Source: Candidatus Hermodarchaeota archaeon (GTDB taxonomy: Archaea > Asgardarchaeota > Lokiarchaeia > Sigyniarchaeales > SOKP01). Taken from it: a DNA stretch of 33,824 bases. The notes under the pieces were generated by a model that made no database searches, had not been told where the DNA came from, and saw only the letters and a program-made list of their open reading frames with translations. The position numbers and the translations under genes are program-made. Below are positions 5 through 26,869 of this stretch, in pieces. The stretch is taken from contig JBHLLO010000031.1 of NCBI GenBank assembly GCA_048885535.1, positions 1 through 33,824 on the forward strand, read 5' to 3'. Every line of letters starts with the position of its first letter. Within the stretch, counting starts at the first letter, position 1.

Positions 5-2317
5 TTATAAAAAAATGTCTACTTCCTTTTTTGGAAAATTAGCAAAAATTTTAGAAATAGATTCTCCTGATTGTAATTTCTCTTGAGTTTCAGAATAAAT
101 AGGATAATATTCATGTAAAATCTTATAGATGTCATTCCATTGGCGTTGTTCTTCTGTATTAATATCTATTGCTTTCTTTATTTTAGATAATATCAGTCTA
201 GATTTTTTCCTTTTGAGAAATTTAATAAACTGTTTTATGATTACAATTCTTTCTCTCTTAAACTCTTTTGGTCTAAATGTGGATAATGAATAGGTAAGAA
301 ATTCATCTAAAATGGGAGAAAAACTAATTAATTTGTCTTCAGGTTCATTAGGATTTTCCAAGAGCCTTAATTCAACATCTCGCTCACTAATACTCTCAAG
401 AATTGGATAAAGTTCTCCAGGTGTAATTCTTGTTTCTATTTGAATGTCTGAAGCTATTTCAGAAATTGGAAACTGAAATTTAGGATACTTCTCCTCATTT
501 TCAATTCGATAAATATATTCTTTTTTTAAAATTTCAATGATTAAATTTTTTAACGACTCTGGAACTTCCTTTTCCGTAAAAGATATTATGGCATCTTTTT
601 GTTTCTTTTCAAAACTCCTTTCTTCTCTTAACTTTTTACTATATGTGCTTTTAAGAGAAGAAACAAAAATATCAGAAGCTTCTTCTGATTCAGGGATACT
701 ATCCAATTTAAATAAGTCTGGTGACTTTTTTGTCATTGTTTCATATAATCTTTTTGATAAGTATGATTTTGCTTTTTTCTGTGCTACTTCCTTCTTATCA
801 AACTTTTCTATGACTGATACAAAATCTATGAATTTCTGAGTCACTCCATAGTTATTCTTTACTTTTCTAATGAGAACATCGATATCACCATCAACTAATT
901 CATTAATGAGTGAATAAACAGCATTTTTAGGAAGATTTGTAGCTTTTATTAACTCACGGTCCATAATTTCAATAGGGTATGCCTCACCTCTCCGAATATA
1001 TTCAGTTTTTAATAACTTGTATATAATATCCATTTTTTCAGCTTCTTTATCAATAGTTTCCTTTTGTAAGCGTATAAACATTGAGGTTTCATGGGGTCTC
1101 AGATAATATACTAAGAGTGTGATACCAAGGAATAAAATCATAAGAAGTGAGACGATATACTTGTCAAACATCAAGAAATTTCCTATAATACTGATTTCCT
1201 GGTTGGAAATTTGTGCTTCTAGGCTAAAACGAGTTAGAGTTTGAGCAATAACACATCCCAAGATCAACATAATCAACCCATCTCTCTTAAACATAAAGAT
1301 TTGCCATCCCAGAGATCTACCTAATTTCAAGATTATCCTGTATAAGAAAAGCATAGAAATTATGAATTCAAAAATGAAAATAAAAGAAACTGTCGAGCTT
1401 GTTGCTCCTACTTTGACTTTTAAGGCATTTATAGTCTCAGGTCTCAAAATTAAAAATATGCTTATCTGAAATATTTGAAAAAAGAAAATAAAGAATACAA
1501 TTAAAGAAAAGGTATAATTATCATATAATCCTGCTCTTTTTGTTTCAGCCTTTCTACGAGTAAAAATAAATTCAAAAATGATGAATAAAAGTATCATGAT
1601 AAGACTGAAATAAATTAATGGCATAACCAATCTCATTTCTATTTGATATACTTCGACTGCTTCTTGAGGAGCCGTAGATCCAAGAAAATCTAGAGAGAGA
1701 AATACTAATACAAGTCGATAAAACAAAGCTAATATAATTAATAGACCTAAAATAAAATAAGGTGAGATCCCTGCTAAAAACTTCCGAGTAGTTGAATATT
1801 TTGTTATAAGTCTTGCTTCCAATTTTGTAGCAAACTTCCTAGAATACATATAAAATCTTGTACTCAATAATATTAACCAAATCGTAGATAAAATAAACAA
1901 GTATGACATAAAGTTCAAATTTGTAGAAAATAAAATCAGAAAGAGGAAATAAAATGCAATTCCGGCTCCTAAATAAATAATTGATTGTTTAATTGCTGAA
2001 TGTTCTTTAAATACAAAATCTCGTATCTTATTATTACTATAAAGGAAGGATAAAAGAATGAATAAAGCAACAATAGTGTTCCCAATTAAGAATATCTGTT
2101 CAAAAAGCATTGGAAAAGTTATTTCAGATATATTCATTAATGTTAATAGTATTAAAGAGATTGAGATAAACAATATATAAATACCAATGAACTTTTTGCT
2201 AAAAGCATAAGACTTAGGAGGTTCTTTTCCCTCTATATAGATTTCTTTGATAAATATTTTATGATAAATTGGTATTAACTTATGTTTAATCTTTGATAAA
2301 ATCTGTTTAGATTTCAT
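5..2317 (-). CDS. Polytopic membrane protein (about 9-10 TM helices) with a large cytoplasmic C-terminal region carrying two similar, probably winged-helix, domains
   Basis: 770-aa ORF. Many hydrophobic 20-25 aa stretches in the first ~405 aa, then a charged C-terminus with an internal repeat (LLKTEYIRR...YPI / ILKKEYIYR...FPI). Confidence 0.75.
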   Translation of the reverse strand: MKSKQILSKIKHKLIPIYHKIFIKEIYIEGKEPPKSYAFSKKFIGIYILFISISLILLTLMNISEITFPMLFEQIFLIGNTIVALFILLSFLYSNNKIRDFVFKEHSAIKQSIIYLGAGIAFYFLFLILFSTNLNFMSYLFILSTIWLILLSTRFYMYSRKFATKLEARLITKYSTTRKFLAGISPYFILGLLIILALFYRLVLVFLSLDFLGSTAPQEAVEVYQIEMRLVMPLIYFSLIMILLFIIFEFIFTRRKAETKRAGLYDNYTFSLIVFFIFFFQIFQISIFLILRPETINALKVKVGATSSTVSFIFIFEFIISMLFLYRIILKLGRSLGWQIFMFKRDGLIMLILGCVIAQTLTRFSLEAQISNQEISIIGNFLMFDKYIVSLLMILFLGITLLVYYLRPHETSMFIRLQKETIDKEAEKMDIIYKLLKTEYIRRGEAYPIEIMDRELIKATNLPKNAVYSLINELVDGDIDVLIRKVKNNYGVTQKFIDFVSVIEKFDKKEVAQKKAKSYLSKRLYETMTKKSPDLFKLDSIPESEEASDIFVSSLKSTYSKKLREERSFEKKQKDAIISFTEKEVPESLKNLIIEILKKEYIYRIENEEKYPKFQFPISEIASDIQIETRITPGELYPILESISERDVELRLLENPNEPEDKLISFSPILDEFLTYSLSTFRPKEFKRERIVIIKQFIKFLKRKKSRLILSKIKKAIDINTEEQRQWNDIYKILHEYYPIYSETQEKLQSGESISKIFANFPKKEVDIFL

Positions 2318-2353: not shown

Positions 2354-2508
2354 TTTAAATTCATATAAATGATTTTACTCTTTTATAGATTGGTATACAT
2401 ATAAGTTCACTTGAATAAATGAGATATACTGAAAAATAATAATTATGGGTAACAAAAATTATATGACTTAAGATGAAACTTTTAAAAATATCCAAATATA
2501 ATATTAAT

Positions 2509-2784
2509 ATGAGCATGGAGAACCAGCAAGATAAAGAAACGATCTTAAGATTTGTCAAACAAGCAATTGAGATGCTCTGTGAAAAGAATATTTCTGAAGT
2601 AGTTATACTATCTTCTTATAAAATCAACTCCATTTTAAAAGAAAGTTATGGGGTAGATATTAGAGTAGACAGAATTGGTAGAATCTTAAGTACTATTGCA
2701 GAAAGAAATCAATTAAAAAGATTAAATACAAATATTCCAAAATACAAATTAAAAATATCTAAACTTTCCTCATTACAATTTTAA
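2509..2784 (+). CDS. Small basic protein, probable winged-helix/DNA-binding protein
   Basis: Track ORF is 2473..2784. ATG 2509 (MSMENQ) is preferred because a TTTTAAAA box at ~2480-2487 lies ~25 nt upstream. Helix-turn-helix-wing-like pattern (SSYKINSILKESYG..VDRIGRILSTIA..KYKL). Confidence 0.6.
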   Translation: MSMENQQDKETILRFVKQAIEMLCEKNISEVVILSSYKINSILKESYGVDIRVDRIGRILSTIAERNQLKRLNTNIPKYKLKISKLSSLQF

Positions 2785-2815: not shown

Positions 2816-4213
2816 TCATTTTAACTGTCTGAAATCAGATATTACTTTTTGAAGCCGCTCAATTAGATCCTCTATCTCTTTATACTTTTCTCTAATGGGA
2901 TTGGAATCTAAATTAAGATCCTCAATCTCTTTATTCAGGTTTGAATTAAATCTTGAACTTAATATTTTAATTTCGTTTACCATGTTTTCTGAGAGAGAAT
3001 TTGTATTTTTATAAACTTCTGTAATAAGGTTTGAAGATTTAGCTACTAAAGGTGTAGTCTTAGCATCTAATTGTGTAATATTATATAATTTTACCTCTTC
3101 ATAGGACATTTTTTCTTTGAGATTATTAATGAGCTCTTGTAAATTCTTTTCAATAATAACTCTAATATCTTCAGTGATTTTTTCAAATAACTTGGAAACA
3201 TTTAAAGTAAATTCTTTTTGAGATTTAATTCTTCTATCAATATAATCTGAAATGTTTTTAGCAAATACATTTGAAATCTCAGTAAAGCTCCTATCAAAAT
3301 AATTTTGTATGTCTTCAAGACCTTTTTCAATTGAGTTTTTCATTTGATTTACAGTACTTCTAATATATTCAGTACCCTTTAAAGATCCATCACGAATGTC
3401 AGTCATCCAACCACTTAGTTGTTGCTTATAAGCATCCATGAAGGATTCAGCAAATTTGTAAGTACCTTCTCTAAATCCTGAAAAAATTGGTTCGATTTGT
3501 TCATTAAATTCGACCTCATCACTACTTATCGCAATTTTATTTTTTGGAATTTCTTCAAGTTCTTCAATAGTAGGTTTTCTAATTTCATCAAATTCGTTAA
3601 TAATTATCGGGGTTTTTCTCTGATTATCTTCTACAAGTTCTTTTATCCATTTAAAAAAGTTTAACGTTTTAGGAATTTCCACTTCAAAAGGCACTTTTAT
3701 GTATTCACTATCTATTCCTTTTGAGTACTTTTTTAATCTGAAAATTTCTAATCCAAAATTATTTTCCGCATCCAGTAAATTACAATCAAAGATAATTATA
3801 AATCCATATGGATTTTTTTCATTTTGGAAATACAATTGATTACTTTTATCAGCATGAGAAAGGAAAAAACCTCCTTTTAATCTTGAATGATACCATCCAA
3901 GTATTTTAAGATTAGTACTAGTTACATTTTCTTCTATCTGTTTGATTTTTTCATGGGTTTCCTGAGTAAAGCCTAGTTCTGCAAGATCTCCATGAGATAG
4001 CGGGATTATGTTCATTAGATCCATGGTTTCATCTCCCGAATTTACTTCTCCTATACATATTCCCATAGCTTCTTGATACTCATCTAATGAATCATTTGCA
4101 AATCGTAAAACATGGCAAAGCATCTTTCTAAAAGCATTATTACTTATAAATACTTTCCAATCTTCTGCTATTTCTATAATCTCTTCTTTTTTCTTCATAT
4201 TTTCATTTGACAA
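2816..4213 (-). CDS. MPN/JAB domain protein with degenerate JAMM motif (predicted pseudo-isopeptidase, MPN-) plus long helical/coiled-coil tail
   Basis: QEAMGICIG (catalytic Glu strand) and GWYHSRLKGGFFLSHAD, i.e. H-S-R instead of H-S-H. About 240-aa amphipathic helical C-terminus. TTG start preceded by GTGATGG. Confidence 0.85.
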   Translation of the reverse strand: MSNENMKKKEEIIEIAEDWKVFISNNAFRKMLCHVLRFANDSLDEYQEAMGICIGEVNSGDETMDLMNIIPLSHGDLAELGFTQETHEKIKQIEENVTSTNLKILGWYHSRLKGGFFLSHADKSNQLYFQNEKNPYGFIIIFDCNLLDAENNFGLEIFRLKKYSKGIDSEYIKVPFEVEIPKTLNFFKWIKELVEDNQRKTPIIINEFDEIRKPTIEELEEIPKNKIAISSDEVEFNEQIEPIFSGFREGTYKFAESFMDAYKQQLSGWMTDIRDGSLKGTEYIRSTVNQMKNSIEKGLEDIQNYFDRSFTEISNVFAKNISDYIDRRIKSQKEFTLNVSKLFEKITEDIRVIIEKNLQELINNLKEKMSYEEVKLYNITQLDAKTTPLVAKSSNLITEVYKNTNSLSENMVNEIKILSSRFNSNLNKEIEDLNLDSNPIREKYKEIEDLIERLQKVISDFRQLK

Positions 4214-4225
4214 GATCCATCACAC

Positions 4226-5683
4226 TCATTTTTTTAATTCTTTTATTTCACTTTTTAGGTCTCTAATAGTATTGTGAAGATTTTTCTTTTCATTCTCTAG
4301 TTTTTCAATTTTATTTAGAACAGGGGTTTTAGAACCTTCAAGAACTAATATAGCTGCTTTAAGATCCGCAACAACCTTTCTTAAATCTTTATCTAGATCT
4401 GAAAAAACCATTTGAACATTGGTTATTCGTTTTTTAACGTTAATTAGAACAACTTCTTGTTTCTCTTCAATTGCACCTTTAATACGGCTATTAGTCGGTT
4501 CTATTAAATTGTTTAATTCATCAATCTTCGTATAATTTTTCTCTAAATCTTTTAAAATTGTTTCACTATCTTCATTTATTTTATTCAATTCACCTAAGTT
4601 ATTATCAAATTTATTTACCATTTGTGTTATATTTGGCAAAAATGTGTTTTCAATTGATTCATGTATTTGTCTGATAAAACTTTCTTTAAAAGACTCTATT
4701 TGATCTTCTACATTTTTAAATGCATTATCAAGATCGTCAAGCTTATCATCTATATAGAAATCCAATTCCTTTAATTTATCTTGTAGCGAGAAATTAAAAG
4801 ATTTTTGTAGTTTGGTGACCCCTCCACTCAAATTTTCTTTGAGTTGAATTAAATCATTTCTTATCTGTGAGTTATTATAATAAGTTTTTTTCACAATTTC
4901 TTGGCTCCAAAAATTTAGAATTCTAATTAACGGCTCAAGTGAGGAATCAATAAACATTGAAAAACTGTTTTTGAGATTACTTATTAATTCTGTTATTGAT
5001 AATTCTGGTATTTTACTTTCTAATTGTTTTTGTTCTGGAAAAAATATATCCCCAAATAACTCCGTTGTTTCATTTAATTCAAGAATCGGTGGCTCTTTTG
5101 AATAGGCAGTATTAATTAAATCGATTATTTTCTCATAAAATTCATTACTATCTGGAGGTTCAACATTAGCTTTAACTTCATAATATTTTGAATTTAGACC
5201 TTTTGATGGGTCTTCTAATCTAAAAACTCTAAAACCTAAATCATCTGGTTTTTCTAAAAAAGAATGATCGAATACAATTCCTAATCCACTGGAATTTTTA
5301 TCTTGCCAAAATAATTGGTTGAAAATATCTGTACTTGAGAAGAAAATACCCAAATTAGGATGTGAATGGTACCATCCTACAGTAAACCAATTCTTATCGC
5401 CATGTTCCTCCCAGATTTGTCTATCAATTTCCCCAAATGCACCAAGTTGCTCTGGAGAGAATTTTACCTCGATTGATCCTCCATGAGATATAGGAATAAC
5501 ATCTTCCACTATTACGTCTTTTATTTCTCCCTGACCCGTTTGATGTCCTATTAACATTCCCATAGCTTCTTTATATTCGTTTACAGTTTGAGTTTTTGAT
5601 CCAAATCTAAGAACATGGACTAACATTTTATAATAGGCCATTGGTTTGATTGTAACAATACTCGTGTCTGTAATTTTGCCCAT
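4226..5683 (-). CDS. JAMM/MPN+ metalloisopeptidase (Rpn11/Mov34 family) with long helical/coiled-coil tail
   Basis: KEAMGMLIG and GWYHSHPNLGIFFSSTD match E-xn-H-S-H-x7-S-x2-D. C-terminal ~260 aa is heptad-rich. Confidence 0.9.
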   Translation of the reverse strand: MGKITDTSIVTIKPMAYYKMLVHVLRFGSKTQTVNEYKEAMGMLIGHQTGQGEIKDVIVEDVIPISHGGSIEVKFSPEQLGAFGEIDRQIWEEHGDKNWFTVGWYHSHPNLGIFFSSTDIFNQLFWQDKNSSGLGIVFDHSFLEKPDDLGFRVFRLEDPSKGLNSKYYEVKANVEPPDSNEFYEKIIDLINTAYSKEPPILELNETTELFGDIFFPEQKQLESKIPELSITELISNLKNSFSMFIDSSLEPLIRILNFWSQEIVKKTYYNNSQIRNDLIQLKENLSGGVTKLQKSFNFSLQDKLKELDFYIDDKLDDLDNAFKNVEDQIESFKESFIRQIHESIENTFLPNITQMVNKFDNNLGELNKINEDSETILKDLEKNYTKIDELNNLIEPTNSRIKGAIEEKQEVVLINVKKRITNVQMVFSDLDKDLRKVVADLKAAILVLEGSKTPVLNKIEKLENEKKNLHNTIRDLKSEIKELKK

Positions 5684-5817: not shown

Positions 5818-6447
5818 TTAATGCGGAAGTTTTCCCCCACAATAGGGGCAATATTTCCAATCTAGGTCTTTTCCACAGTGAGGACAGAATGTTGATGGGC
5901 TCTCGTCAGCTTTAGGTATAGAAGGTAATTCTCTTGAAGTTCTAACGGTCTCGGTTCTCTTTTCTGCTTCTTCTTGCTTCTTGTACATCATTCGTTCTTT
6001 AAATGCTTGGCGTTTTTCTTCTTCTAACTCTTGCACAGACTTCATGCCTTCCTCTTTTACCCATCCTACAGATTGTGGTCTTTTTATTTCACTTTCTGGA
6101 ACCTTCTCTAATTCTATCTTTTTTGTTTCTTCTATGGGAGCCATAACTTTCTTTTGTTCTTTCTTTTCAAGAGCTTGTTTTACTAATGCTTGTGTTGTTT
6201 TCATAACTTGGTGTGGATTTATATTTGGAATAGCAACGGTGCGTAAAACCCAGCCCACAATAAGATTCTGATTAGGAAACCCCCCTTCTGCTATATCTTC
6301 GTCTTTATATATATATGAATCTATAACAGTTTGTCCCTTTAATAACCTTGAAGCCCACTTATTATTAATTAGTCCTAATTGAATTCGATATGAAGTTCCT
6401 GGTATACCTAACTGACTTGTTAATGGTTCAAAACCTTTTTCTGCCAT
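5818..6447 (-). CDS. Hypothetical protein with charged linker and C-terminal zinc ribbon
   Basis: C-terminal CPHCG-x7-CPYCG. Track start is TTG 6456; ATG 6447 (MAEKGF) is likelier. Confidence 0.75.
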   Translation of the reverse strand: MAEKGFEPLTSQLGIPGTSYRIQLGLINNKWASRLLKGQTVIDSYIYKDEDIAEGGFPNQNLIVGWVLRTVAIPNINPHQVMKTTQALVKQALEKKEQKKVMAPIEETKKIELEKVPESEIKRPQSVGWVKEEGMKSVQELEEEKRQAFKERMMYKKQEEAEKRTETVRTSRELPSIPKADESPSTFCPHCGKDLDWKYCPYCGGKLPH

Positions 6448-6666
6448 TATAATCAAGTGTTTTTATTTATTTTGGAATCAGAAATAATCTGATATTAGTA
6501 ATAATATAATGGTAAATTATGAATTTAAATAATTTTATGTTTTTAAAGACAAACTTGAGTCAGAATAAGATTAAATATGATTTAGGTTAAAGAAAAAAAT
6601 AGACATAAATAGAGGGAATAGTATAAAAATATCAATTATAAAATTATATTGCGTTAGAAAAGAATT

Positions 6667-7620
6667 ATGACTATTATCATTCCAAAGGAAGCTTATTTAA
6701 CAGTTGTGGCAGCTTCAGTTAGGTTTGCCAATCGAAAGATTGATCAAGATGATTGGTTAGAAGTCAATGGTGTATTTATTGGAGAAATTAAAGGAGATGA
6801 CATTTTAATAAAGGAAGCGTATCCTATTATGCATCAAAAATTAGATAAAACTGCTGTAATTGATAAATATGAATGGTCTGATGAGGATAATGTCACATAT
6901 ACTTTGGTTGACGACGAGGCTTTTTCAAAAGGTTTATATACTGTCGGGTCTTGGCATTCACATCCAGGTTTTAAAGTTATGTTAAGTCATATTGACATCA
7001 AGCATCTAGCATTCCATCAGAGTGTAAATCCTTCATATTTTACTTTAGTATTTAATCCTACTAGATTAGAAAGGCAGGTAGAAATGCCTGAGAAAAAAGG
7101 TAATCCTGAAATACAACTTAAAGATGAGCCTGGATTTAAAATCTTTAGATTAGATGACGTGAATAGAGGAATTGAAGCTTCATACCACACAATAGATTAT
7201 CATATTGAAGGTTATGATTCGATGGAACAGTTAATTGATTTAACTAAAAAATTTCTTATAGATGTAACTAACTTCTTTCCTAAAGATAATCTTTTCGAAA
7301 CATATGAAGGGTTGGTAACAGAAAAAGTAAGAAATTTAGATTCTCTTCTCCTAGGGACAGAAGAATATTTAGCCACATTAGTGCGTAAGGGTGAATCCCA
7401 TAGAGTTTCTGAAGTTTTAGACAATCAAACAAGGGAAATTAGAAAATTTATTGCTGAAACATATATTAAGATTGACAATATCAAGCAATTTATGAATTAT
7501 TTGGAATATAAGGAACGAGATAGGATAATTCCTCAAGTAAAGGAGGTTTTTTCAAAATGGGATGAAAAAATCTCTATTATAGATACAAAATTAAACCAGT
7601 TAGCTAAAACATTCAAATAA
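6667..7620 (+). CDS. JAMM/MPN+ metalloisopeptidase with ~130-aa helical C-terminal tail
   Basis: LEVNGVFIG and GSWHSHPGFKVMLSHID give a complete JAMM motif. GFKIFRL strand is shared with the two other MPN genes. Confidence 0.85.
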   Translation: MTIIIPKEAYLTVVAASVRFANRKIDQDDWLEVNGVFIGEIKGDDILIKEAYPIMHQKLDKTAVIDKYEWSDEDNVTYTLVDDEAFSKGLYTVGSWHSHPGFKVMLSHIDIKHLAFHQSVNPSYFTLVFNPTRLERQVEMPEKKGNPEIQLKDEPGFKIFRLDDVNRGIEASYHTIDYHIEGYDSMEQLIDLTKKFLIDVTNFFPKDNLFETYEGLVTEKVRNLDSLLLGTEEYLATLVRKGESHRVSEVLDNQTREIRKFIAETYIKIDNIKQFMNYLEYKERDRIIPQVKEVFSKWDEKISIIDTKLNQLAKTFK

Positions 7621-7765: not shown

Positions 7766-9970
7766 ATGAAGAAGATTAACTTCCCCTTTTCAGCAATACT
7801 TGGACAAGATAAAATGAAAATGGGCCTAATATTAAATGTTATTGATCCACAGATAGGCGGAATTCTATTATCAGGCCAACAAGGCACTGGTAAATCAACT
7901 GCAGTTAGAAGTTTAGTTGAAGTAATGCCTGAAATTGAAGTTATTAAAGAATGTGTATTTTCTTGTGATCCAAAGTCAAATATTGATGATTTATGTGAAG
8001 ATTGCCGTAAAAGAAAGGAAAGTAAAAAGGTTGAAATAGAAACTCGAGAGATGAAGTTAGTTAACTTACCATTAGGTGTTACTGAAGATATGGTGTGTGG
8101 AAGTTTATCTATTGATAAAGTTTTAACTGAGGGAATTAAAAGTCTTCATCCAGGTTTACTTGCAAAAGCTAATAGGGGTATTCTTTATATAGATGAGATT
8201 AATCTTCTACAAGATCACATAGTCGATACATTATTGGATGCAGCAGCGTCTGGAGTTAATATTATAGAACGAGAGGGAATTTCTGTTATGCACCCTTCTA
8301 GATTTGTGTTAGTAGGGTCTATGAATCCGGAAGAAGGAGAACTGAGACCACAGATAGCCGATCGTCTAGGATTAGAGGTTAAAATTAAAGCTCCAAGAGC
8401 TTCTAAAATAAGAGCGGAAATTACACGCAGAGTAATCGAATTTGATGATAATCCCAAAACTTTTATTAAAAAATATGAGAAAGAAGAAGAAATATTAAGA
8501 GAAAGAATTAAAAAGGCACGGGAATTGCTAAAGGAAGTAAAAATTCCTGCCTCAGTTTTTGAATTTGTATCATTGATTGTTAATGAATTAGAAATTTTTT
8601 CTCAAAGAGCAGATATAACATTTATTCGTTGTGCCAGAGCTCATGCCGCTTTTAATGGTAGAAAAGAAGTTCTTGAAGAAGATCTAAATATTGCATTAGA
8701 TTTAGTGTTTGAACATAGAATCCAATCACTGCATTATGAAATGACTCCTAAAGAAATAAAAGCTAAAATTGCTGAAGTATACGGAAAGATACAGAAAGCT
8801 TATGAAGATCCAAAGGCTTATAAACCGAATAAAGATACAGAAGGATCATTGAAACATGATGATACACTTCATAAAGAATTTAAACGCCAATCTGTTGATC
8901 CGAGAAAGGTAAAAATACCAGAAACCAAAGAACAGAAATTACCGCCTCCTAAGTATCCTGATAATAAAAAGAGAGCTCCTACTCCTGCAGGGGGGTGGAA
9001 AGTGAAAGAAATCCCCTTTAATGAGTTAGATTTTCAATTCTTTGAAAATGATAATGAAGAGTTACCCTTAATATATAGAATGGAACAAAAAATGAGTTCG
9101 ATACTAGATAATATTCGGAAAGAACGAAAAGTTTCTAATTATGGTGGACGTGGTATAGGAAGACGCATAAAAATATCTTCTTCTCAGAAAGGAAAATATA
9201 TCTCATATAGAAATCCAATAAATAAACCTAAGAGTTTAGCTTTAGATGCGACGATTAGGAATTACTTGAAAAATACAATCTACAATCAAACAGATATTGA
9301 GTTCCCGATTAAATTTGATAAATATGATTTAATGGATAAAATATTTGAATATCGTTCACCACTAGTATTGTTTTTTGTGCTTGATAGTTCAGCCTCAATG
9401 TATTATGTAATAAAACAGATGACAGATGTAATATTATCCCTACAGAAGGAAGGTTATAGAAAACGGGATAAAATAAGTTTGGTTATATTTAGAGGTAAAG
9501 AAGCAATTGTATTAGAAAAGCCATCAGTCTATTTTAAGAAAGCTCTAAATAAATTAAAGAATATTGAAGGTAAATCTTATACTCCAATGGCTGCAGCACT
9601 AACAAAATGTATTAAATTAATAAATGCCGAGAAATTGAAGAATAGAAATATAATTCCTGTTATTTTCATTTGTTCTGACTGTGGGGCAAATATTTCAGTT
9701 AAGAAGCCTGATTTGATTGCTCAAATTCAAAGCGATTATACCATAATTATTAATGAACTAAAGGAATTAACAAAATCATTATCGAAGAAAGGTGTCCATC
9801 TTGTTGTCTTAGAACCAAAAAAAAGTTATGCAACTCAAGGTTTAGGTGTCAATACTTATGCTGCTGAAATGATTAAAAAAAATTTTAAAGAGCATGGGAA
9901 AGCTCAAATTTTTCAGTTTGACAAATATAATCCAGAAAAGTTAATTTTAGAGCTAAAAAGAATTCTGTAA
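7766..9970 (+). CDS. ChlI/ChlD-like (Mg/Co-chelatase family) AAA+ ATPase fused to a vWA domain
   Basis: FPFSAILGQ, Walker A GQQGTGKS, Walker B ILYIDEIN, GSMNPEEGELRPQIADR, Pro-rich linker (LPPPKYP), MIDAS DSSAS...TP...SD. Confidence 0.9.
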   Translation: MKKINFPFSAILGQDKMKMGLILNVIDPQIGGILLSGQQGTGKSTAVRSLVEVMPEIEVIKECVFSCDPKSNIDDLCEDCRKRKESKKVEIETREMKLVNLPLGVTEDMVCGSLSIDKVLTEGIKSLHPGLLAKANRGILYIDEINLLQDHIVDTLLDAAASGVNIIEREGISVMHPSRFVLVGSMNPEEGELRPQIADRLGLEVKIKAPRASKIRAEITRRVIEFDDNPKTFIKKYEKEEEILRERIKKARELLKEVKIPASVFEFVSLIVNELEIFSQRADITFIRCARAHAAFNGRKEVLEEDLNIALDLVFEHRIQSLHYEMTPKEIKAKIAEVYGKIQKAYEDPKAYKPNKDTEGSLKHDDTLHKEFKRQSVDPRKVKIPETKEQKLPPPKYPDNKKRAPTPAGGWKVKEIPFNELDFQFFENDNEELPLIYRMEQKMSSILDNIRKERKVSNYGGRGIGRRIKISSSQKGKYISYRNPINKPKSLALDATIRNYLKNTIYNQTDIEFPIKFDKYDLMDKIFEYRSPLVLFFVLDSSASMYYVIKQMTDVILSLQKEGYRKRDKISLVIFRGKEAIVLEKPSVYFKKALNKLKNIEGKSYTPMAAALTKCIKLINAEKLKNRNIIPVIFICSDCGANISVKKPDLIAQIQSDYTIIINELKELTKSLSKKGVHLVVLEPKKSYATQGLGVNTYAAEMIKKNFKEHGKAQIFQFDKYNPEKLILELKRIL

Positions 9971-10013: not shown

Positions 10014-11261
10014 ATGGATAAGAAAGAGAAATCTGTCTTAATTATAGGTTTTAACACTCGTCCTCTTGCTTATTCTTTAAATAAAGCAGGTTATTTAGTA
10101 TATGTTGTAGATTTTTTTGGAGATTTAGATTTATTTCCTTATATTGAAGATGGTATAATCATAACAAAAGAATTAGGGACTTCATATAATGTAATAAAAA
10201 ATGATTACCAACAATTTCTAATACAATATTCAACTAAGCTTTTACAAAAATATCCTAAAATAAAAAATTTAATCATTGCGAGTGGACTTGATGATTACAT
10301 TGAGGAACGTAGTCAAATTTTAGAAATGATTAAGGATAAATGTTATGAAGTTAAAAACCTTAATAATAGTATTGATTCTATAAAGAGGGCTCGTGATATA
10401 ATAAAGATTTATAAAATTTTATTAACAGAGGGATACAAAGTTCCAATTACTGAAGTATTTGAAGATCCAAGTAAAATAACTTCCACAATTGTGAATCCTT
10501 TTATACTTAAAAAAAAAAAGAGTTCTGGTGGTATTAATGTATATAAGATTGAGGATAGAGATCAATTATCCTTTTTAATTAAGAAATTTCAAGTAAAAGG
10601 GTTTCTTCCTTCAGATTGGCTAGTACAAGAATACATAAGTGGAATTCCAGTCAGTTGTACTACTATTTCAAATGGAAATGAGAGTAAAGTTGTTTCGATC
10701 AACCGTCAAATTATAGGGTTAAAATTTGTCAATCCCCCCAAAGAGTTTATGTATTGTGGTAATATCGTTCCTGGGAACCTATTATCAGAGGAAAATAAGC
10801 TGATTTCTGAAATTTCAATTAAATTAGCAAATAATTTGGAATTAAAGGGTATTAATGGATTTGATTTTGTGTTAAAAAATAATTATCCTTATTTAATGGA
10901 AATTAACCCTCGAATACCTGGTTCTATTAATGTCTCAGAACATTCGTTGAATATTAATTTAATGGATTTACATATTAAGAGCTTTTATAAAAATAATTGG
11001 AGAGAGATTATGGATATAATAGATAATAGTGTTTACAAAAAATATGCTACAAAATTGATTTATTTTACCCCAAAGTATGTATCAATTGATAAAATAGAAC
11101 AAGTTAATAATCTCAAATATATTCATGATAAAACAGAACCCATTAAAAATTTATTCAAAGGAGAACCAATATGTTCTATCTTGTATATGGCAGAAAATTT
11201 CTCTAATTCCTTTTTTGGAGCATTAAAGATAGCTGATGAAATAACTAAGATTCTATCATGA
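10014..11261 (+). CDS. ATP-grasp carboxylate-amine ligase (archaeal COG2232-like)
   Basis: N-terminal IGFNTRPLAYS..GY..VDFFGDLDL, ILKKKKSSGG, VQEYISG, GINGFDF, LMEINPRIPGS. Confidence 0.85.
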   Translation: MDKKEKSVLIIGFNTRPLAYSLNKAGYLVYVVDFFGDLDLFPYIEDGIIITKELGTSYNVIKNDYQQFLIQYSTKLLQKYPKIKNLIIASGLDDYIEERSQILEMIKDKCYEVKNLNNSIDSIKRARDIIKIYKILLTEGYKVPITEVFEDPSKITSTIVNPFILKKKKSSGGINVYKIEDRDQLSFLIKKFQVKGFLPSDWLVQEYISGIPVSCTTISNGNESKVVSINRQIIGLKFVNPPKEFMYCGNIVPGNLLSEENKLISEISIKLANNLELKGINGFDFVLKNNYPYLMEINPRIPGSINVSEHSLNINLMDLHIKSFYKNNWREIMDIIDNSVYKKYATKLIYFTPKYVSIDKIEQVNNLKYIHDKTEPIKNLFKGEPICSILYMAENFSNSFFGALKIADEITKILS

Positions 11262-11268
11262 ATCTTGC

Positions 11269-12003
11269 TTATCTAATTATGGATTTAATTTTTGCAATAT
11301 AGGCTCCTAATTTTCTCTCATCAGCTTCAGGTACTGCTATAGCAAGAACCCTGGTTTCATCTAATTCATGTATTATAATAGAACCATTTTCACCTCCAAT
11401 AATGGAAAACTCCAAACTTGCTTCCAATAAAACGCTTGATAGATTATATATTGCTGATGTAATTGCTGAGAGTATTGGTTCAGGCATAGTTGATTGAATT
11501 TTAATGGGTAACCCATCTTTTGTGATAATTGCAATTACTAAAGCATTCGGAACAGCTCTTTTTATGGCAACAAATATCTCTTCCTTAATAAGATTAGAAG
11601 TTTCAATAATAGCAGATATTTGTATAGCAAATTTTTTTAACGAGTTTATGTATGAATCTAATCCTTCAAGTTCAGCTAATTCCCGATTTAAATATGACAT
11701 TAATGCAATATTTTCAGTTAAAATTGAAAGAATTATTCTTTCTTTCCCGGTAATAAGATTATAAGAAAGTTTTTGATTTAAAGAATCGAGTAATATTTTT
11801 GATGAAAGAAATACCATACTACTACTTGCAGCTGAAATTTCTGTTTTAGTTAACTTTATATCTCTTTTAAATTTACTAGCGAGATGAGTTCCTCCATGCG
11901 ATGAAATTGAGATACCAAGTATCCCATGTTTGTCATTAATTTCTTTTTCAATTAATTTTACTAGATCGATTTCCAAATTATTACTTTTAGCTTCTGAACT
12001 CAT
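11269..12003 (-). CDS. Tandem (double) Roadblock/LC7 (LAMTOR/MglB-like) domain protein
   Basis: Two ~115-aa halves: ILGISISSHGG..ISAASSSMVFLSSKIL and LVIAIITKDG..LSAITSAIYNLSSVLL..IIGGENGSIIIHEL. Confidence 0.8.
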   Translation of the reverse strand: MSSEAKSNNLEIDLVKLIEKEINDKHGILGISISSHGGTHLASKFKRDIKLTKTEISAASSSMVFLSSKILLDSLNQKLSYNLITGKERIILSILTENIALMSYLNRELAELEGLDSYINSLKKFAIQISAIIETSNLIKEEIFVAIKRAVPNALVIAIITKDGLPIKIQSTMPEPILSAITSAIYNLSSVLLEASLEFSIIGGENGSIIIHELDETRVLAIAVPEADERKLGAYIAKIKSIIR

Positions 12004-15097: not shown

Positions 15098-18000
15098 GTG
15101 CGAAAAAAGTTGAGTTCCATAAAAAAGTTGTCTAGTTTAAATTTCTCTGACTTATTAGGTGATGATCAAAAGTTAGTTTTTCTTGTAGGTGCTGGGTCTT
15201 CAATTGATTCACCGTCTTTAATGCCTAGTGCCTATGAAATTATGAAAACTCTTATTAAATTTGCATGTGTAGAATCGGAAATAGAAAAAATAAATCAGAT
15301 TGAGGAATTGAAGTTTGAAACATTGTTGGAAATTTTTTATGAAACTTTGGATAATGAACTCTTATTAGCAGATTTATATCTACAGAATAGCATACCCAAT
15401 CTTGCTCATTTCTTTCTGGTAGAAATGGCGAAACGGGGACATTTCATAATGACCGCTAATTTTGATTCACTTATAGAGCATGCTATGTTACAATCTGAAA
15501 TTCAAAAAAGAAGAATCATTCCTGTTATAACTGAGAAAGATTATGAAAAGTATAACGATCCAGAAAAGCTGTACAAGGGAGGGAAATATGCCATATATAA
15601 AATACATAGTTCTCCAAAGAATATAATTACAGGAGAGGATACAAAAACAGCTTTTCTAAACACTATAAGACTATTAGGGCAAAATTTTGAAAAAAGTAAT
15701 TTAATTCAATTAGAACCCTTTAAAGCTCAACTCCTTGAAAATATATCGAATGAACGTACATTAGTAATTTTTGGATATTCTGGGAAAAATGATTTTGATA
15801 TCATTTCAACTCTTAAAATAATGAAGAATTTAAAGAATTTAATTTGGATTAATCATACATCAACAGATACTATAACAGAAGAAATTTATAAAATCGAAAC
15901 CCAGAAAGAAGAAATAAAAAAGATAGATGAATTAGACTCATTTTTATTAGATGTCATGCAGATAAACGATACAATTAATGTTTATAGGATGGATACTAAC
16001 ACGAGTAAATTATTAGATAAATATTTAGAAAAGAAAGACCTAATATCTTCTGAAAAATTTACATTTAACTTAATGGGATGGCTTCAAGAGAATATTAAGA
16101 AACCTGATGAAATAACAAAACTATACTTTTCATTTAAAATATATTATGAAACCAAAAGATATACCGATTCTTTGAGATGCTTAGAAAGAATTTATCGTTT
16201 AGCAGATGAAGCAGGAGAAGATTTATGGAAAGCAGTAGCTTTAATGAATATGGGTATTATTAATCAAGACCAAAAAAATTATGACAAAGCACTTGAATGG
16301 TTAAAGCAATCTCTTCAGGCACAAATCAAAATGAAAAATATTGCACAAAAAGTTGCTGTTTTCAAAAATATTGGTATTGTTTATAGTAATTTAAGAAATT
16401 TTGAGGAAGCCCATAAATATTTAATGCAAGCATTAAAAGCAAATGAGAAACTCAAAAATCTTTCTACTAAGGCAGAGATACTTAATAGCATCGGTTCAAT
16501 CTTTCAAAAACAAGGAAACTATGTTGAAGCTTTAAAACAGTTTGAAATAGCATATAAAATAAATGAAAAGCTTTTAAATTTAAAACAGAAAGCCCTTAAT
16601 CTTAGAAGTATGGGTAAAGTATATTTTCTAAAAGAAAATTATGGCGAAGCATTAAGATATTACAATGAGGCTTTTCAAATTAATGATGAATTAGATAATT
16701 TAAACGATAAAGCTGAAATACTTAATATATTAGGGTATATCTACCATTTAAAAGATGATTCATTAGTAGGTTTAGAAAAGTGTAATAAAGCTCTTGAAAT
16801 ATTTAATAAATTAAAAAATATTGATGGAAGTATAAATTCACTTCGAAATATTGGCGTGATCTATAGAGATCAATGGAATTATACTAAAGCTTTAGAAAAT
16901 TTCGAAGATGCATATCAATTAGCGGAAGAAAATGAAAGAATTGAAAAGAAAGGGGAGCTATCAAATCAGATTGGTCTCATATTTCAAAAGCAGGATAAGT
17001 TCACTGAAGCTTTGGAATGGTTTGAAGATTCATTAGGAATTTTTAGAGGATTAGACAATCTCGCCGGGGAAGTGGAAGTTTTAAAGAATATTGGCTTAAT
17101 TTATAAGGATCAACGAAATTTTTCTAAATCTTTAATCAGTTTTGATAAGGCAATAAAAATCTTTGAAAAACTAAAAGACAAAAAAAGTAAAGCAGATTAC
17201 TTTAATGTTATGGGCTTAATCCATCTAGAACAACGGAACTTTCTAGAAACTTTGAGAAACTTTCAAGATGCTTTAGATGTTTACACTGAATTAAACCATC
17301 GTGAAGGGATTGCCGACACATTAAGAAACCTAGGAATCTTCTATCAAGAGCAAGCAAACTTCTCTGATTCCTTGAATAGATATAATGATGCTTTAGTTAT
17401 TTTCGAAGAATTAGGAATAGATGAGAAAAAAGCAGAGATATTAAATAAAATAGGTACTATTTATCAAGATCAAGGAGATTATGCAGAAGCTGTTAAACTA
17501 TTTAAAAAAGCTCTTGAGATTTTCGATCAATCAAGAAATTTAGAAGGTAGAATAGATACTCTACATAATATTGGTCTGAATTTCCATTATCAGGGAGACG
17601 ACACTACTGCTTTAGAAAATTTAAGTGAAGCAGTTAAAGTATGTGAACAAATAGGTAATTTACAAAAAAAATCTAATTGCCTTATCTTTGTAGGCAACAT
17701 TTATAAAGATCAATGGAATTTCTTAGAAGCTTTGAGAAGATTTGAGGAAGCATTAATAATTGTAGAACAACTAGGTAACCTCCAGAAGCAGCTTGAAATT
17801 TTCAATATTGTTGGTAAAATATATCAAACCCAAAAACATTATCCAGAAGCAATAAGAAGATTTCAAGAAGCTCTTTATGTTGCAGAGCAAATTGGAAATT
17901 TAGAAATAAAAGCTGATGTCCTAAACAGTATTGGGGATATTTATTATGATGAAGAAAGCTATACTGAAAGCTTGAAATGGTTTGAGGATGCTTTAAAAAT

Positions 18001-19165
18001 TGATGAACAGCTAGCAAATCTGCATGGTAAATCAATACGTTTAACTAATATTGGTAGTGTTTATTTGATTCGAAAAAATTATCCCGAGGTTCTAAAGAAA
18101 TATAAAGAAGCTTTGGAAATAGAAGAGCAACTAGGAAATCTAACTCGAAAAGCAACAATATTGCGAAATATTGGAGCAATTTATTATGATCAAGAATTTT
18201 ATTCGGAAGCACTAAAATGGTATGAAGAAGCATATACGGGATTTTCAGAAATCGAAAATTTAGAGGGAGTGACTGATTGTTTTAATAGTATAGGATTAGT
18301 TTATAAATCTCAGGGAGACTTCAAAGAAGCTCTTAGATGGTATGAAGAAGCCTTAAAAACTGCTGAAAAAATATATGATTATGATAGAAAAGCCAATTTA
18401 CTTAACGAAGTCGGATTGATATATTATCAACGTGGCATTTATAAGGATGCAATAAAACGCTATAAACTAGCCTTAGAGATTTTTGATAAAACAGGGAATC
18501 TTATTGGCAAAACATTTAGTTTAAATAAAATTGGTTTAATATATCAAGATCAAGGTAATTATAGTGAGGCATTAAACAACTATGATAGAGCCATAAAATT
18601 CTTTAAAGTGTTAGAGGATTCAAAAGAAAAAGCAGAAAATCTATATAATAGAGCATTAATCTATCGAGATCAAGGAGCATATCTAGATGCCTTAAAGAAT
18701 TTTGAAGCTGCATTAAAAATAGATGATAAACTTTATAATTTCGAAAGAAAAGCAGAAGCTTTGAATAACATTGGATTGATCTACTTAGATGACGGAAAAT
18801 ATGATATTGCTTCAAAAAGATTTGAAGAAGCTGTAAAAATTGCCTCTCAAGTAAATAATAATAAGATGAAAGCTACATATTTGAATAACCTGACCTTAGT
18901 TTACCTAAATCAAGGAGATTATACCCAGGCATGGAAGAGTTGTAATGAAGCTCTCAAGCTTTTTGAAGAAGTTGAATCTTATGAAGGAATAGCTGATACT
19001 AATTACAAAATGGGATTGATTTATTTAGATCAAAAGAGTTATCCAGAAGCGCTAAACAGACATGAAGAAGCACTTAAAATTCTTAATGATAATCATTTAA
19101 GTAAATCTCCATTGGTTAAAGTGCTAAAGAATAATATAAAAATTATTAAAAGTAATATTAAATAA
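15098..19165 (+). CDS. SIR2-like (SIR2_2/NADase-type) domain fused to a long 40-aa TPR array
   Basis: LVFLVGAGSS, FIMTANFD, IYKIHSS and LVIFGYSG in the first ~300 aa, followed by 24-25 TPR-like units. No Walker A motif seen. Confidence 0.88.
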   Translation: MRKKLSSIKKLSSLNFSDLLGDDQKLVFLVGAGSSIDSPSLMPSAYEIMKTLIKFACVESEIEKINQIEELKFETLLEIFYETLDNELLLADLYLQNSIPNLAHFFLVEMAKRGHFIMTANFDSLIEHAMLQSEIQKRRIIPVITEKDYEKYNDPEKLYKGGKYAIYKIHSSPKNIITGEDTKTAFLNTIRLLGQNFEKSNLIQLEPFKAQLLENISNERTLVIFGYSGKNDFDIISTLKIMKNLKNLIWINHTSTDTITEEIYKIETQKEEIKKIDELDSFLLDVMQINDTINVYRMDTNTSKLLDKYLEKKDLISSEKFTFNLMGWLQENIKKPDEITKLYFSFKIYYETKRYTDSLRCLERIYRLADEAGEDLWKAVALMNMGIINQDQKNYDKALEWLKQSLQAQIKMKNIAQKVAVFKNIGIVYSNLRNFEEAHKYLMQALKANEKLKNLSTKAEILNSIGSIFQKQGNYVEALKQFEIAYKINEKLLNLKQKALNLRSMGKVYFLKENYGEALRYYNEAFQINDELDNLNDKAEILNILGYIYHLKDDSLVGLEKCNKALEIFNKLKNIDGSINSLRNIGVIYRDQWNYTKALENFEDAYQLAEENERIEKKGELSNQIGLIFQKQDKFTEALEWFEDSLGIFRGLDNLAGEVEVLKNIGLIYKDQRNFSKSLISFDKAIKIFEKLKDKKSKADYFNVMGLIHLEQRNFLETLRNFQDALDVYTELNHREGIADTLRNLGIFYQEQANFSDSLNRYNDALVIFEELGIDEKKAEILNKIGTIYQDQGDYAEAVKLFKKALEIFDQSRNLEGRIDTLHNIGLNFHYQGDDTTALENLSEAVKVCEQIGNLQKKSNCLIFVGNIYKDQWNFLEALRRFEEALIIVEQLGNLQKQLEIFNIVGKIYQTQKHYPEAIRRFQEALYVAEQIGNLEIKADVLNSIGDIYYDEESYTESLKWFEDALKIDEQLANLHGKSIRLTNIGSVYLIRKNYPEVLKKYKEALEIEEQLGNLTRKATILRNIGAIYYDQEFYSEALKWYEEAYTGFSEIENLEGVTDCFNSIGLVYKSQGDFKEALRWYEEALKTAEKIYDYDRKANLLNEVGLIYYQRGIYKDAIKRYKLALEIFDKTGNLIGKTFSLNKIGLIYQDQGNYSEALNNYDRAIKFFKVLEDSKEKAENLYNRALIYRDQGAYLDALKNFEAALKIDDKLYNFERKAEALNNIGLIYLDDGKYDIASKRFEEAVKIASQVNNNKMKATYLNNLTLVYLNQGDYTQAWKSCNEALKLFEEVESYEGIADTNYKMGLIYLDQKSYPEALNRHEEALKILNDNHLSKSPLVKVLKNNIKIIKSNIK
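16244..19123 (+). repeat. 24 contiguous 40-aa (120-bp) TPR-like repeats, plus one degenerate unit upstream
   Basis: Consensus N.IG.IY..Q..Y.EAL..F..AL.I...L.N...KA..L. Unit 1 (MNMG) at 16244 and unit 24 (YKMG) at 19004 are exactly 23x120 bp apart. Confidence 0.9.
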
Positions 19166-26176: not shown

Positions 26177-26869
26177 CTATATGTTTAATAATGAAGTATC
26201 AAGGATATCTTCATCTAAAGGTGCCTTTCCATTTCCATAAATTTGATATAAAGCAGTTCTTCTAGCACATTCATGGAAACTACGGTATATATCCTTCTGT
26301 TGATCGTATAAGGCACAGGTTTCATAGATGATAGGATTCCACCGATTTAAACTATTATTCAATTCATACCATAGTTTCTCATTTTTTAAAACTTGGATGA
26401 ATACATCTTTATCTACAACCTCTTTAAGATCCTGTTTATTAAGCATAACAATAAATGGGATTTCTTTTATAAGTTTATCATCAACTATACTTTTCAATTC
26501 TCTAAGTGATTCTATATTATCTTCAAGATACTTCGTTTGAGAGTCTGCTACAAAAATGACCGCATCAGTTTTATCTTCTGGACGATTAAATAATTTTATT
26601 CTAAGAGGAGAAAAACTAGTTTGACCTGCAACAGTAAAAACTCGATAGTATACTTTTTTCTGCTTTGTAGATTGAAATAAACCTCTATCAAAATATAGAG
26701 TTGCTCCACTTTCCCTAGCTATTATTTGTAGATTTCCAATTGGGATAATATCTTTCTTTGTCTCTTTTGTTAATTTATAAAGAGTCTGAAGTATCGTTGT
26801 TTTACCTGAACCTGCCATTCCCCAATAAACAACTTTTAAACAGACCTTCCCATTTTTATAAAGAACCAT
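26177..26869 (-). CDS. Small Ras-superfamily GTPase, MglA-like
   Basis: KVVYWGMAGSGKTT (G1), TLYFD (G2), TVAGQ (MglA-type G3), NKQD (G4), TCA (G5). Confidence 0.88.
   Translation of the reverse strand: MVLYKNGKVCLKVVYWGMAGSGKTTILQTLYKLTKETKKDIIPIGNLQIIARESGATLYFDRGLFQSTKQKKVYYRVFTVAGQTSFSPLRIKLFNRPEDKTDAVIFVADSQTKYLEDNIESLRELKSIVDDKLIKEIPFIVMLNKQDLKEVVDKDVFIQVLKNEKLWYELNNSLNRWNPIIYETCALYDQQKDIYRSFHECARRTALYQIYGNGKAPLDEDILDTSLLNI

Follow-up and report, generated by a model that had tools for sequence, protein, structure and literature searches.

A conserved Asgard archaeal tandem of a JAMM protein and a paralogue with a repeatedly degenerated active site, a candidate enzyme/pseudoenzyme pair

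The genome of an Asgard archaeon deposited as Candidatus Hermodarchaeota archaeon (GTDB lineage Asgardarchaeota; Lokiarchaeia; Sigyniarchaeales; SOKP01; assembly GCA_048885535.1; 3.09 Mb, 91.6% complete) encodes on contig JBHLLO010000031.1 two adjacent MPN-domain proteins, here termed A and B. The stretch of DNA analyzed, referred to as the window, is this one entire contig (C31; positions 1 to 33,824; G+C 26-35%). A carries a complete JAMM active site and B a degenerate one. Conservation of the tandem extends across Promethearchaeota, the Loki lineage of the Asgard archaea, and in the alignments the catalytic residues of A are constant, whereas those of B differ from lineage to lineage. With moderate confidence, we propose that A and B are tandem duplicates that would be made together and form a parallel heterodimer, with A as the sole obligatory catalytic subunit and B as a non-catalytic partner.

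Genes A and B and their active sites

Both genes lie on the minus strand. Gene A (4226..5683) encodes a 485-residue MPN+ (JAMM) protein and gene B (2816..4213) a 465-residue MPN paralogue; for each, the open reading frame (ORF), Pfam, and AlphaFold2, supplemented by PDB matches for A and by Foldseek for B, indicate an MPN head followed by a disordered acidic linker and one long helix. The start of B was taken as the TTG at 4213, and an in-frame ATG is present at 4198. The genes are arranged head to tail, with 12 nucleotides (nt) between the A stop codon, which ends at 4226, and the B start at 4213. Over 324 residues the two proteins share 31% identity (E 2e-37), and the six motifs KML.HVLRF, EAMG..IG, IP.SHG, GWYHS, NQL..Q, and G...FRL are all common to both proteins. 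A preliminary description of this DNA, made from the sequence alone, had proposed two co-oriented paralogues 12 nt apart on the basis of these motifs, and the proposal holds.

The active site of A reads E39 ... H106-S-H108-PNLGIFF-S116-ST-D119, which is the full E...HxH-x7-S-x2-D motif; the codon of the catalytic Glu lies at 5567-5569, and H106-S-H108-x7-S116-x2-D119 is encoded at 5327..5368 (minus strand). The equivalent positions of B (E48, H109, R111, S119, and D122) read E48 ... H109-S-R111-LKGGFFL-S119-HA-D122. The second zinc-binding His is thus the only site changed in the B of the window, with the other four (Glu, first His, Ser, and Asp) retained. As already noted in the preliminary description, the AGA codon of Arg111 (3881..3883, minus strand) differs from both CAT and CAC at all three positions, and the Pro that follows the second His is replaced by Leu in B. 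The H-S-R sequence is also found in the five nearest B orthologues (loci L002-L006), and the Arg codon is therefore not a sequencing error.

Pfam model PF01398 (the JAB/MPN family of eukaryotic type; cut-off 22.5 bits) matched A with 40.2 bits (E 3.4e-10) and B with 49.6 bits (E 4.3e-13). The best PDB match of A was the Rpn11-like protein of Caldiarchaeum (6fjv, 1.4e-9), followed by BRCC36 (2.2e-8 to 2.4e-6), Rpn11, and CSN5. When the B model was searched with Foldseek, the best matches were the Rpn11 chains of Rpn8-Rpn11 crystals (E 1.6e-11), and the probability was 1.00 to Rpn11, CSN5, and BRCC36, so that the MPN fold is retained in B. By Pfam, PDB matches, and AlphaFold2, A combines the MPN/JAB fold with the E...H-x-H-x7-S-x2-D motif of JAMM/MPN+ metalloisopeptidases. 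A is predicted from these features to be a zinc JAMM isopeptidase cleaving conjugates of ubiquitin or ubiquitin-like proteins, and B is predicted to be catalytically inactive.

Conservation of the tandem

Of the 24 other genus genomes, 23 carry a full-length orthologue of B (E <= 7e-75), and the one lacking it is 71% complete. Among 16 genomes representing other families of the order, 4 had clear A-B tandems, and the complete genome of Promethearchaeum syntrophicum MK-D1 contained no A/B pair, its best match having 29% over the MPN core. A lies directly upstream of B in 18 of 20 genus loci, the remaining two ending at a contig edge, and in 37/37 further loci from a species-representative collection, many of which are cut by contig ends; the pair is thus syntenic elsewhere, as the preliminary description had anticipated. 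The gap between the two genes ranges from -35 to +15 nt with a median of 2 (50 loci; start codons approximate). Such tight gene spacing usually accompanies co-translation. Among the loci with room for both genes, none has A without B.

Catalytic-site loss is confined to the downstream gene

The MPN ORFs of all loci were gathered (193 matches, 181 of them non-identical) and aligned, and the five catalytic columns were read. Rows were assigned to A, to B, or to a third paralogue, C, by gene position in the tandem only and never by their residues. E-H-H-S-D is read in every one of the 51 complete A rows; three more rows are truncated or masked. B reads E-H-H-S-D in 8 of 56 non-identical rows, and the other 48 carry at least one lesion, in 21 different states. 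The view of the tandem as an active/pseudoenzyme pair consequently stands in that lesions occur in B only (48/56, as compared to 0/51 for A) and falls short in that 8 B rows are intact.

The commonest B state is QHHSD (16 rows). EHRSD is restricted to the window and its five nearest relatives (6 rows), EHHTD was found in 3 rows, and NHHSD and AHHSD in 1 row each. More extensive changes are seen in E[LIV]HTD (4 rows), ELHSG (2 rows), ESHSE (1 row), and E[IL]RTT (5 rows), as well as in DIHKD, EIHRD, ETHND, KIHND, QCH[VD]D, PLHSE, NRSND, and SSRNN, each in single or paired rows. Loss of the second His had been expected to be conserved among B orthologues, and the preliminary description had named retention of H-S-H in most of them as evidence against its reading. 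The alignment does not bear that expectation out: H-S-R occurs in 6/56 rows and H-S-H in 29/56, comprising 18 rows without the catalytic Glu, 3 with Ser replaced by Thr, and 8 fully intact. The second His taken by itself is kept in 43/56.

The states EHRSD, QHHSD, EHHTD, and ELHSG share no lesioned site and therefore, barring regain, require at least four independent first losses irrespective of any tree. On a FastTree phylogeny of 180 rows, computed after exclusion of the five catalytic columns, counting losses as irreversible gave at least 13 subclades in which all members carry lesions; site by site, the loss counts were 11 for the Glu, 10 for the first His, 5 for the second His, 8 for the Ser, and 6 for the Asp. 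Plain parsimony of intact versus lesioned states on the B tree, with regain allowed, gave 4 changes, and we prefer the irreversible count because we consider regain of a full site implausible. In both this tree and the IQ-TREE phylogeny described below, the EHRSD clade of the window adjoins an intact EHHSD row (L035) and QHHSD rows (L007, L030), which points to a recent origin of its lesion.

Three observations on individual lineages are added here. Replacement of the second zinc His by Arg accounts for 4 of the 5 independent losses at this site on the tree (B of L001-L006, L025, L031-L033, L037, and L045), and the positive charge of the recurrent Arg might occupy the vacant metal site. One subclade (L009-L020, L053, L054, L058, L059, L062) has the A motif H-S-H-x10-S-x2-D, with a 3-residue insert, together with the B motif H-S-H-x8-S-x2-D, with a 1-residue insert and Glu changed to Gln; we have assumed that A of this subclade is still active despite its non-canonical spacing. 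In L023, from another family, a third, strongly degenerate MPN-like ORF of 251 residues, reading YKIRD (584-1336), immediately precedes an A-B pair in which both sites are fully canonical.

Selection on B

All 56 B rows have an uninterrupted reading frame, 422-472 residues long. Comparison with the five nearest orthologues gave ratios of nonsynonymous to synonymous substitution rates (dN/dS) of 0.11-0.16 for B and 0.08-0.12 for A, values that are rough, as dS is at or above 1. For the MPN domain, dN/dS was 0.12-0.16 in B versus 0.05-0.06 in A, and dN was 0.16-0.19 versus 0.05-0.09, such that the MPN domain of B evolves two to three times faster than that of A. The tails of A and B evolve at about equal rate. 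B is under purifying selection and is not decaying.

Origin of the pair

With the five catalytic columns removed, FastTree recovered A (53 rows) with support of 97 and B (56 rows) with support of 95, placed the two as sisters with support of 94, and returned broadly parallel branching orders within the A and B clades. IQ-TREE under LG+C20+F+G4 (76 rows) supported A at 95 and A+B at 92; B formed one group save for a 257-residue, poorly filled outgroup row on the longest B branch, which the tree analysis flagged as a long-branch join. The nearest outgroups of A and B are single long MPN+ proteins from other Asgard metagenome-assembled genomes.

The A and B family profiles matched the same solved proteins in the same order, namely the Caldiarchaeum Rpn11-like protein (2.9e-14 for A, 3.4e-13 for B), Rpn11 and CSN5 (1e-12 to 1e-13 for both), BRCC36, and AMSH. 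The B profile scored far better with MPN+ Rpn11 (6.7e-13) than with MPN- Rpn8 (3.3e-5). A homologue search with residues 1-200 of A returned 272 matches; the 120 of these that were listed are all archaeal or metagenomic, with no eukaryotic sequences among them, and the names among the matches listed include 'hypothetical', 'Mov34/MPN/PAD-1 family', and 'proteasome lid subunit RPN8/RPN11'.

Taken at the level of sequence, the A/B duplication appears to lie within Promethearchaeota, and B appears to be a recently degenerated MPN+ protein. B does not appear to be an orthologue of the eukaryotic MPN- subunits Rpn8, CSN6, eIF3f/h, or Abraxas. The preliminary description had left open whether the pair was ancestral to or convergent with the eukaryotic arrangement. 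Since A and B are each other's closest relatives, a lineage-specific duplication is indicated that would be convergent with Rpn11/Rpn8, CSN5/6, and BRCC36/Abraxas; the ancestral option is disfavored by this sisterhood and by the profile scores.

Head, linker, and helical tail

AlphaFold2 was run on our own family alignments of 51 and 53 rows, with the B model numbered from the ATG at 4198. The A model (mean predicted local distance difference test score, pLDDT, 77.1) has an MPN domain at residues 10-193, with block pLDDT mostly 80-93, a low-confidence linker at 195-241, and one helix at 231-484. In the B model (mean pLDDT 77.7), residues 15-193 form the MPN domain, the low-confidence linker spans 207-242, and a single helix occupies 238-459. 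Combined with the hydrophobic period, the models place the A tail at residues 231-484 (4232..4993, minus strand) and the B tail at residues 243-464 in the TTG-start numbering (2822..3487, minus strand). Each linker is about 40 residues, acidic, and predicted to be disordered, and each tail is predicted as an uninterrupted helix of 220-250 residues, in agreement with the tails of about 250 residues described earlier.

The acidic P-I linker noted in the preliminary description was recovered in the family alignments as P-I-[IL]-x-E-x-x-E, with I200, E202, and E205 invariant or nearly so in both the A and the B alignments (minus strand, about 5069-5092 for residues 198-205 of A and about 3584-3607 for B). 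B has a second conserved linker motif, L-Q-E-I-P. The linker motifs look like docking sites for some partner, to judge from their conservation. Both motifs are more conserved than the catalytic residues of B.

The hydrophobic period is 3.62 residues for the A tail (power 149 versus a median of 3.4) and 3.63 for the B tail (power 144 versus a median of 3.1), with hardly any power in either at 3.50, the period of a heptad, and both tails shift locally to about 3.53 near residues 357-412. So sharp a period with so little at 3.50 suggests straight amphipathic helices of the hendecad type rather than classical heptad coiled coils. In profile searches the tails matched apolipoprotein A-IV (2.2e-11 for B, 4.1e-8 for A), and further matches were to apolipoprotein A-I, apolipophorin-III, the ZorA tail, NDC80, chemoreceptors, and designed bundles; the Pfam Apolipoprotein match for B is weak (9.1e-4, below cut-off). 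The apolipoprotein, ZorA, NDC80, and chemoreceptor matches look composition-driven, and binding of the helices to a membrane surface is possible. MitMem_reg (PF13012) had no match in A, in B, or in the genome. Tails of the kind seen in the proteasome lid, to which the C-terminal helices had been likened, were rejected for A and B given this missing match and the single 220-250-residue helices with their 3.62-3.63-residue period.

Proposed heterodimer and its alternatives

The proposal may be set out as follows. A and B would be made together from one transcript and co-translated. Their 220-250-residue amphipathic helices would pair in parallel and in register to form a straight stalk, with the two MPN heads held side by side on the flexible acidic linkers, as in eukaryotic MPN+/MPN- pairs. 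Isopeptide hydrolysis would be carried out by A alone. What would preserve B is its fold, together with its linker motifs and long helix; it would supply a binding surface, stability, or regulation, and could dock other proteins of the gene cluster through the conserved linker motifs. If one active site is enough, selection on the site of B would be relaxed, and the site could then be lost many times by different substitutions. The likely substrates would be conjugates of ubiquitin or ubiquitin-like proteins generated by the organism's own ubiquitin/E1/E2 operon on another contig, and A-B probably works with the MPN+ protein C, a zinc-ribbon protein, an AAA+-vWA protein, and a membrane protein encoded alongside it.

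A complex prediction for full-length A plus B with our own alignments scored 0.59 (runs of 0.60, 0.58, and 0.59), with the best of 3 controls at 0.00, agreement between the runs in at least 46% of contacts, and partner pLDDT of at least 68. In the calibration, which is rough with our own alignments, 58 of 80 solved complexes attained the pass mark, as did 2 of 110 mismatched pairs; at scores of 0.60 or lower, only 7 of those 80 solved complexes passed, plus both passing mismatches. MPN+/MPN- complexes have already been solved, and the pass may therefore come from structures that the prediction model had memorized. We infer heterodimerization of A and B mainly from adjacency, coupling, matched architecture, and one-sided catalytic loss, to which the complex score adds weak support.

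Several points weigh against the heterodimer with an inactive B or against its convergent origin. In 8 of the 56 B rows all five catalytic residues are present, and in another 3 a Ser-to-Thr exchange is the sole difference, so both subunits may be active in those lineages, and B is not a family-wide pseudoenzyme. In the window, B has lost just one of the five residues, and its Ser is immediately followed by a His (S-H-A-D). That JAMM activity is lost on exchange of Glu for Gln or His for Arg is background from eukaryotic JAMM work. Close cousins of true partners also pass the complex prediction, and the score hence cannot separate A-B from A-A or B-B. With some 40 disordered residues between head and helix, pairing of the helices need not force contact between the MPN domains, and given the period of 3.6 residues, which is not that of a heptad, together with the apolipoprotein A-IV matches, the tails could lie on a membrane or lipid surface. 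Finally, the trees were built without any eukaryotic sequence (Rpn11, Rpn8, CSN5, CSN6, BRCC36, or Abraxas), and convergence rests on the sisterhood of A and B and on the profile scores.

These points leave some room for a model in which A and B do not bind each other and instead form separate homo-oligomers through their long helices, with B a non-catalytic receptor or decoy for ubiquitin or ubiquitin-like proteins that is co-expressed with A. The disordered linkers, which uncouple the heads from the tails, would be compatible with such a model, as would the sole binding test, a weak pass in which hetero- and homodimer are indistinguishable; moreover, the solved archaeal relative CsRpn11 crystallized as a homodimer, according to its structural paper (PMC6043591). 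However, adjacency of the two genes is strict in all loci examined, with the median gap of 2 nt and no A without B, and the tail periodicity profiles match, a pattern that would be unusual for two unrelated functions. We regard this alternative as unlikely, while giving it more credence than the others below.

Rather less credence is given to the idea that the tails are membrane- or lipid-surface helices of the apolipoprotein/perilipin type, which would tether the MPN heads to the membrane beside the 770-residue membrane protein encoded after B, with or without A-B pairing. The period of 3.62-3.63 with almost nothing at 3.50, the matches to apolipoprotein A-IV, apolipoprotein A-I, and apolipophorin-III (and, below cut-off, Pfam Apolipoprotein for B at 9.1e-4), and the presence of the polytopic membrane protein gene after B in 20/20 genus loci and 30/37 further loci would all be consistent with it. 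Yet straight coiled coils of the hendecad type share the same period, and long charged helices match many helical proteins by composition, as the hits to the ZorA tail, NDC80, chemoreceptors, and designed bundles illustrate.

It is improbable that the B of the window is still an active hydrolase using an altered metal site, made up of E48, H109, and D122 plus, for example, the His of S-H-A-D, in which case A and B would be two enzymes of different specificities. Four of the five canonical residues are indeed retained, S-H-A-D is found in all six H-S-R orthologues, the MPN domain of B is under purifying selection, and 8/56 B rows are fully canonical. But Arg is unable to ligate zinc as a matter of general chemistry, and in C-type rows with a complete canonical site the Ser is often followed by His too, so that this His is no specific compensation. 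Furthermore, other B lineages have lost two to five of the five residues (EIRTT, NRSND, SSRNN) and yet keep the gene, which shows that the selected function of B does not need catalysis. Decay of B as a duplicate (pseudogene), or a sequencing or assembly error at the Arg codon, might be suspected from the single changed ligand with nothing more, and can be dismissed given the 56/56 full-length open frames, the dN/dS of 0.11-0.16, the Arg found in six genomes, and the codon difference at three positions.

Comparison with known MPN pairs

The A-B tandem resembles Rpn11-Rpn8 and CSN5-CSN6 in being a paralogous MPN pair of which one subunit has the JAMM site and the other does not. It differs from them in stemming from a separate duplication, with B closer to MPN+ proteins than to Rpn8, and in the tails, which are single 220-250-residue helices behind a disordered linker; in addition, the site of B is degenerate differently by lineage and intact in some. 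Nor is A/B an MPN pair of the PCI-complex type (proteasome lid, COP9 signalosome [CSN], or eukaryotic initiation factor 3 [eIF3]), having no MitMem_reg domain and no PCI partner on the contig. No PCI-domain gene was found on the window contig, and weak matches to PCI (PF01399) were seen only on other contigs, this model also matching in 4 of 14 control prokaryotes.

BRCC36 and Abraxas or KIAA0157 form an MPN+/MPN- pair with paired C-terminal helices, and the complex includes the vWA protein MERIT40. The likeness of A/B to these complexes (BRISC and BRCA1-A) lies in BRCC36 being among the best PDB matches of A and in a vWA-domain protein being a conserved neighbor of the tandem. The helices of A and B are several times longer, however, and the vWA domain is here fused to a ChlI/D-type AAA+ motor, such that we speak of likeness and not of orthology.

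By sequence, the solved protein nearest to both A and B is CsRpn11 of Caldiarchaeum subterraneum (PDB 6fjv/6fju), an archaeal, eukaryote-like JAMM enzyme acting on ubiquitin. Unlike A/B, it is a small stand-alone enzyme (155-228-residue constructs) belonging to an operon for ubiquitin, E1, E2, and E3, with no inactive partner. The 2018 structural paper on CsRpn11 describes MPN+/MPN- pairs as not known in archaea (PMC6043591). Full-text literature searches turned up neither an archaeal MPN+/MPN- pair nor the A/B cluster, though supplementary tables of Asgard gene-family surveys might list the family. The principle of an enzyme with a dead paralogue is known; the novelty resides in the lineage, in a stalk-like architecture, in the gene cluster, and in a site loss that is repeated and still ongoing.

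For the question of how the eukaryotic MPN+/MPN- pairs of the lid, CSN, eIF3, and BRISC evolved out of single active enzymes, A/B provides a natural series among the prokaryotes closest to eukaryotes, extending from both sites intact, through single lesions of four kinds, to all residues gone, and A never changes across this series of B decay. The route from a paralogous homomer to an enzyme/pseudoenzyme heteromer thereby becomes directly testable. Descent of the eukaryotic pairs from A/B is not implied by these data. The family also points to a multi-protein cluster and may extend the known Asgard ubiquitin toolkit.

The A/B gene cluster and the ubiquitin system

Upstream of A by 134 nt on the minus strand is a gene (5818..6456) for a 212-residue protein with a C-terminal zinc ribbon, for which the Pfam zinc-ribbon matches are all below cut-off. 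It is found upstream of A in 32/37 loci, and a protein-cluster look-up with this protein returned only its own cluster. Divergent from the zinc-ribbon/A/B unit, and sharing its intergenic region, is gene C (6667..7620, plus strand), which was missed in the preliminary description. By its ORF, Pfam, and comparison with A (25% identity, E 1e-19), C is a third MPN+ paralogue of 317 residues with a full JAMM motif and a shorter helical tail. C is present in 28/37 loci, including one fused form, and 25/25 C rows read EHHSD. The motif of C in the window ends S-H-I-D; in the C rows of L028, L029, L035, L041, L042, and L064 it ends S-G-F-G-D, with the Asp shifted by one residue and a gap at that point in the alignment, and for these six rows the EHHSD call is less certain.

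A gene 145 nt downstream of C (7766..9970, plus strand) encodes a 734-residue ChlI/ChlD-like AAA+ protein with a C-terminal vWA domain (intact metal-ion-dependent adhesion site DSSAS; Pfam Mg_chelatase, AAA_lid_2, and VWA_2), and it adjoins C in most of the 37 loci. This protein matched NCBIfam TIGR02442 ('putative cobaltochelatase') with 7.6e-174 and 580 bits, below the 779-bit cut-off. No match to the CobN/ChlH families was found in the 91.6%-complete genome, and the AAA+-vWA motor therefore looks orphaned from a chelatase function. In L041 (68-3091, minus strand), 1 of the 37 loci, a C-type MPN+ domain and the AAA+-vWA protein are joined in a single 1008-residue ORF, and in its closest relative, L042, they are two genes. 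The L041 ORF is either a real fusion hinting at a complex of C with the AAA+-vWA protein or an assembly error.

Convergent with B is a 103-residue ORF (2473..2784, plus strand), with a homologue at the same place in 32/37 loci. The next gene on the A/B strand (5..2317, minus) is that of the 770-residue polytopic membrane protein, which has a soluble C-terminal half. Neither product has a Pfam or NCBIfam match. In P. syntrophicum MK-D1 (L079, 3089-4930), a divergent pair of a zinc-ribbon gene (3e-34) and a C-like gene (3e-71) occurs without A/B; this pair looks like the older core of the cluster, beside which A/B would have been added.

On another contig (C23) are ubiquitin-like genes, a ThiF E1, an E2, and a separate 276-residue JAB protein of a different MPN family, which together form a canonical Asgard ubiquitin operon. 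Ubiquitin-type conjugates would accordingly be available as substrates. A, B, and C are not the deubiquitinase of the C23 operon, a role that fits the 276-residue JAB protein.

It is conceivable, though doubtful, that A/B forms the core of a conserved multi-subunit machine specific to Asgard archaea, made up of A, B, C, the zinc-ribbon protein, the orphan ChlI/D-type AAA+-vWA protein, a small winged-helix-like protein, and the membrane protein, that would process ubiquitin-type conjugates at the membrane. Were this so, it would represent an independent prokaryotic invention of the combination found in the proteasome regulatory particle and BRISC, namely an MPN+/MPN- pair, a vWA subunit, and an AAA+ ATPase, and the B family would display the conversion of an enzyme into a scaffold subunit at every stage, from intact to fully degenerate.

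Other genes of the window

An ATP-grasp ligase (PF02655, 7.1e-30) is encoded at 10014-11261, 43 nt after the AAA+-vWA gene. Among the 22 other genus genomes with both, its orthologue lies on the A/B contig, 6-16 kb off, in 13 and on a different contig in 9. A Roadblock/LC7-domain protein is encoded at 11269-12003, a 1355-residue protein with a weak SIR2-like N terminus and a long array of tetratricopeptide repeats at 15098-19165, and an Arf-family small GTPase (6.2e-13) at 26177-26869. Two paralogous secreted InhA-like (HExxH) peptidases are encoded at 29254-31389 and 33520-33822, the second being cut by the contig end.

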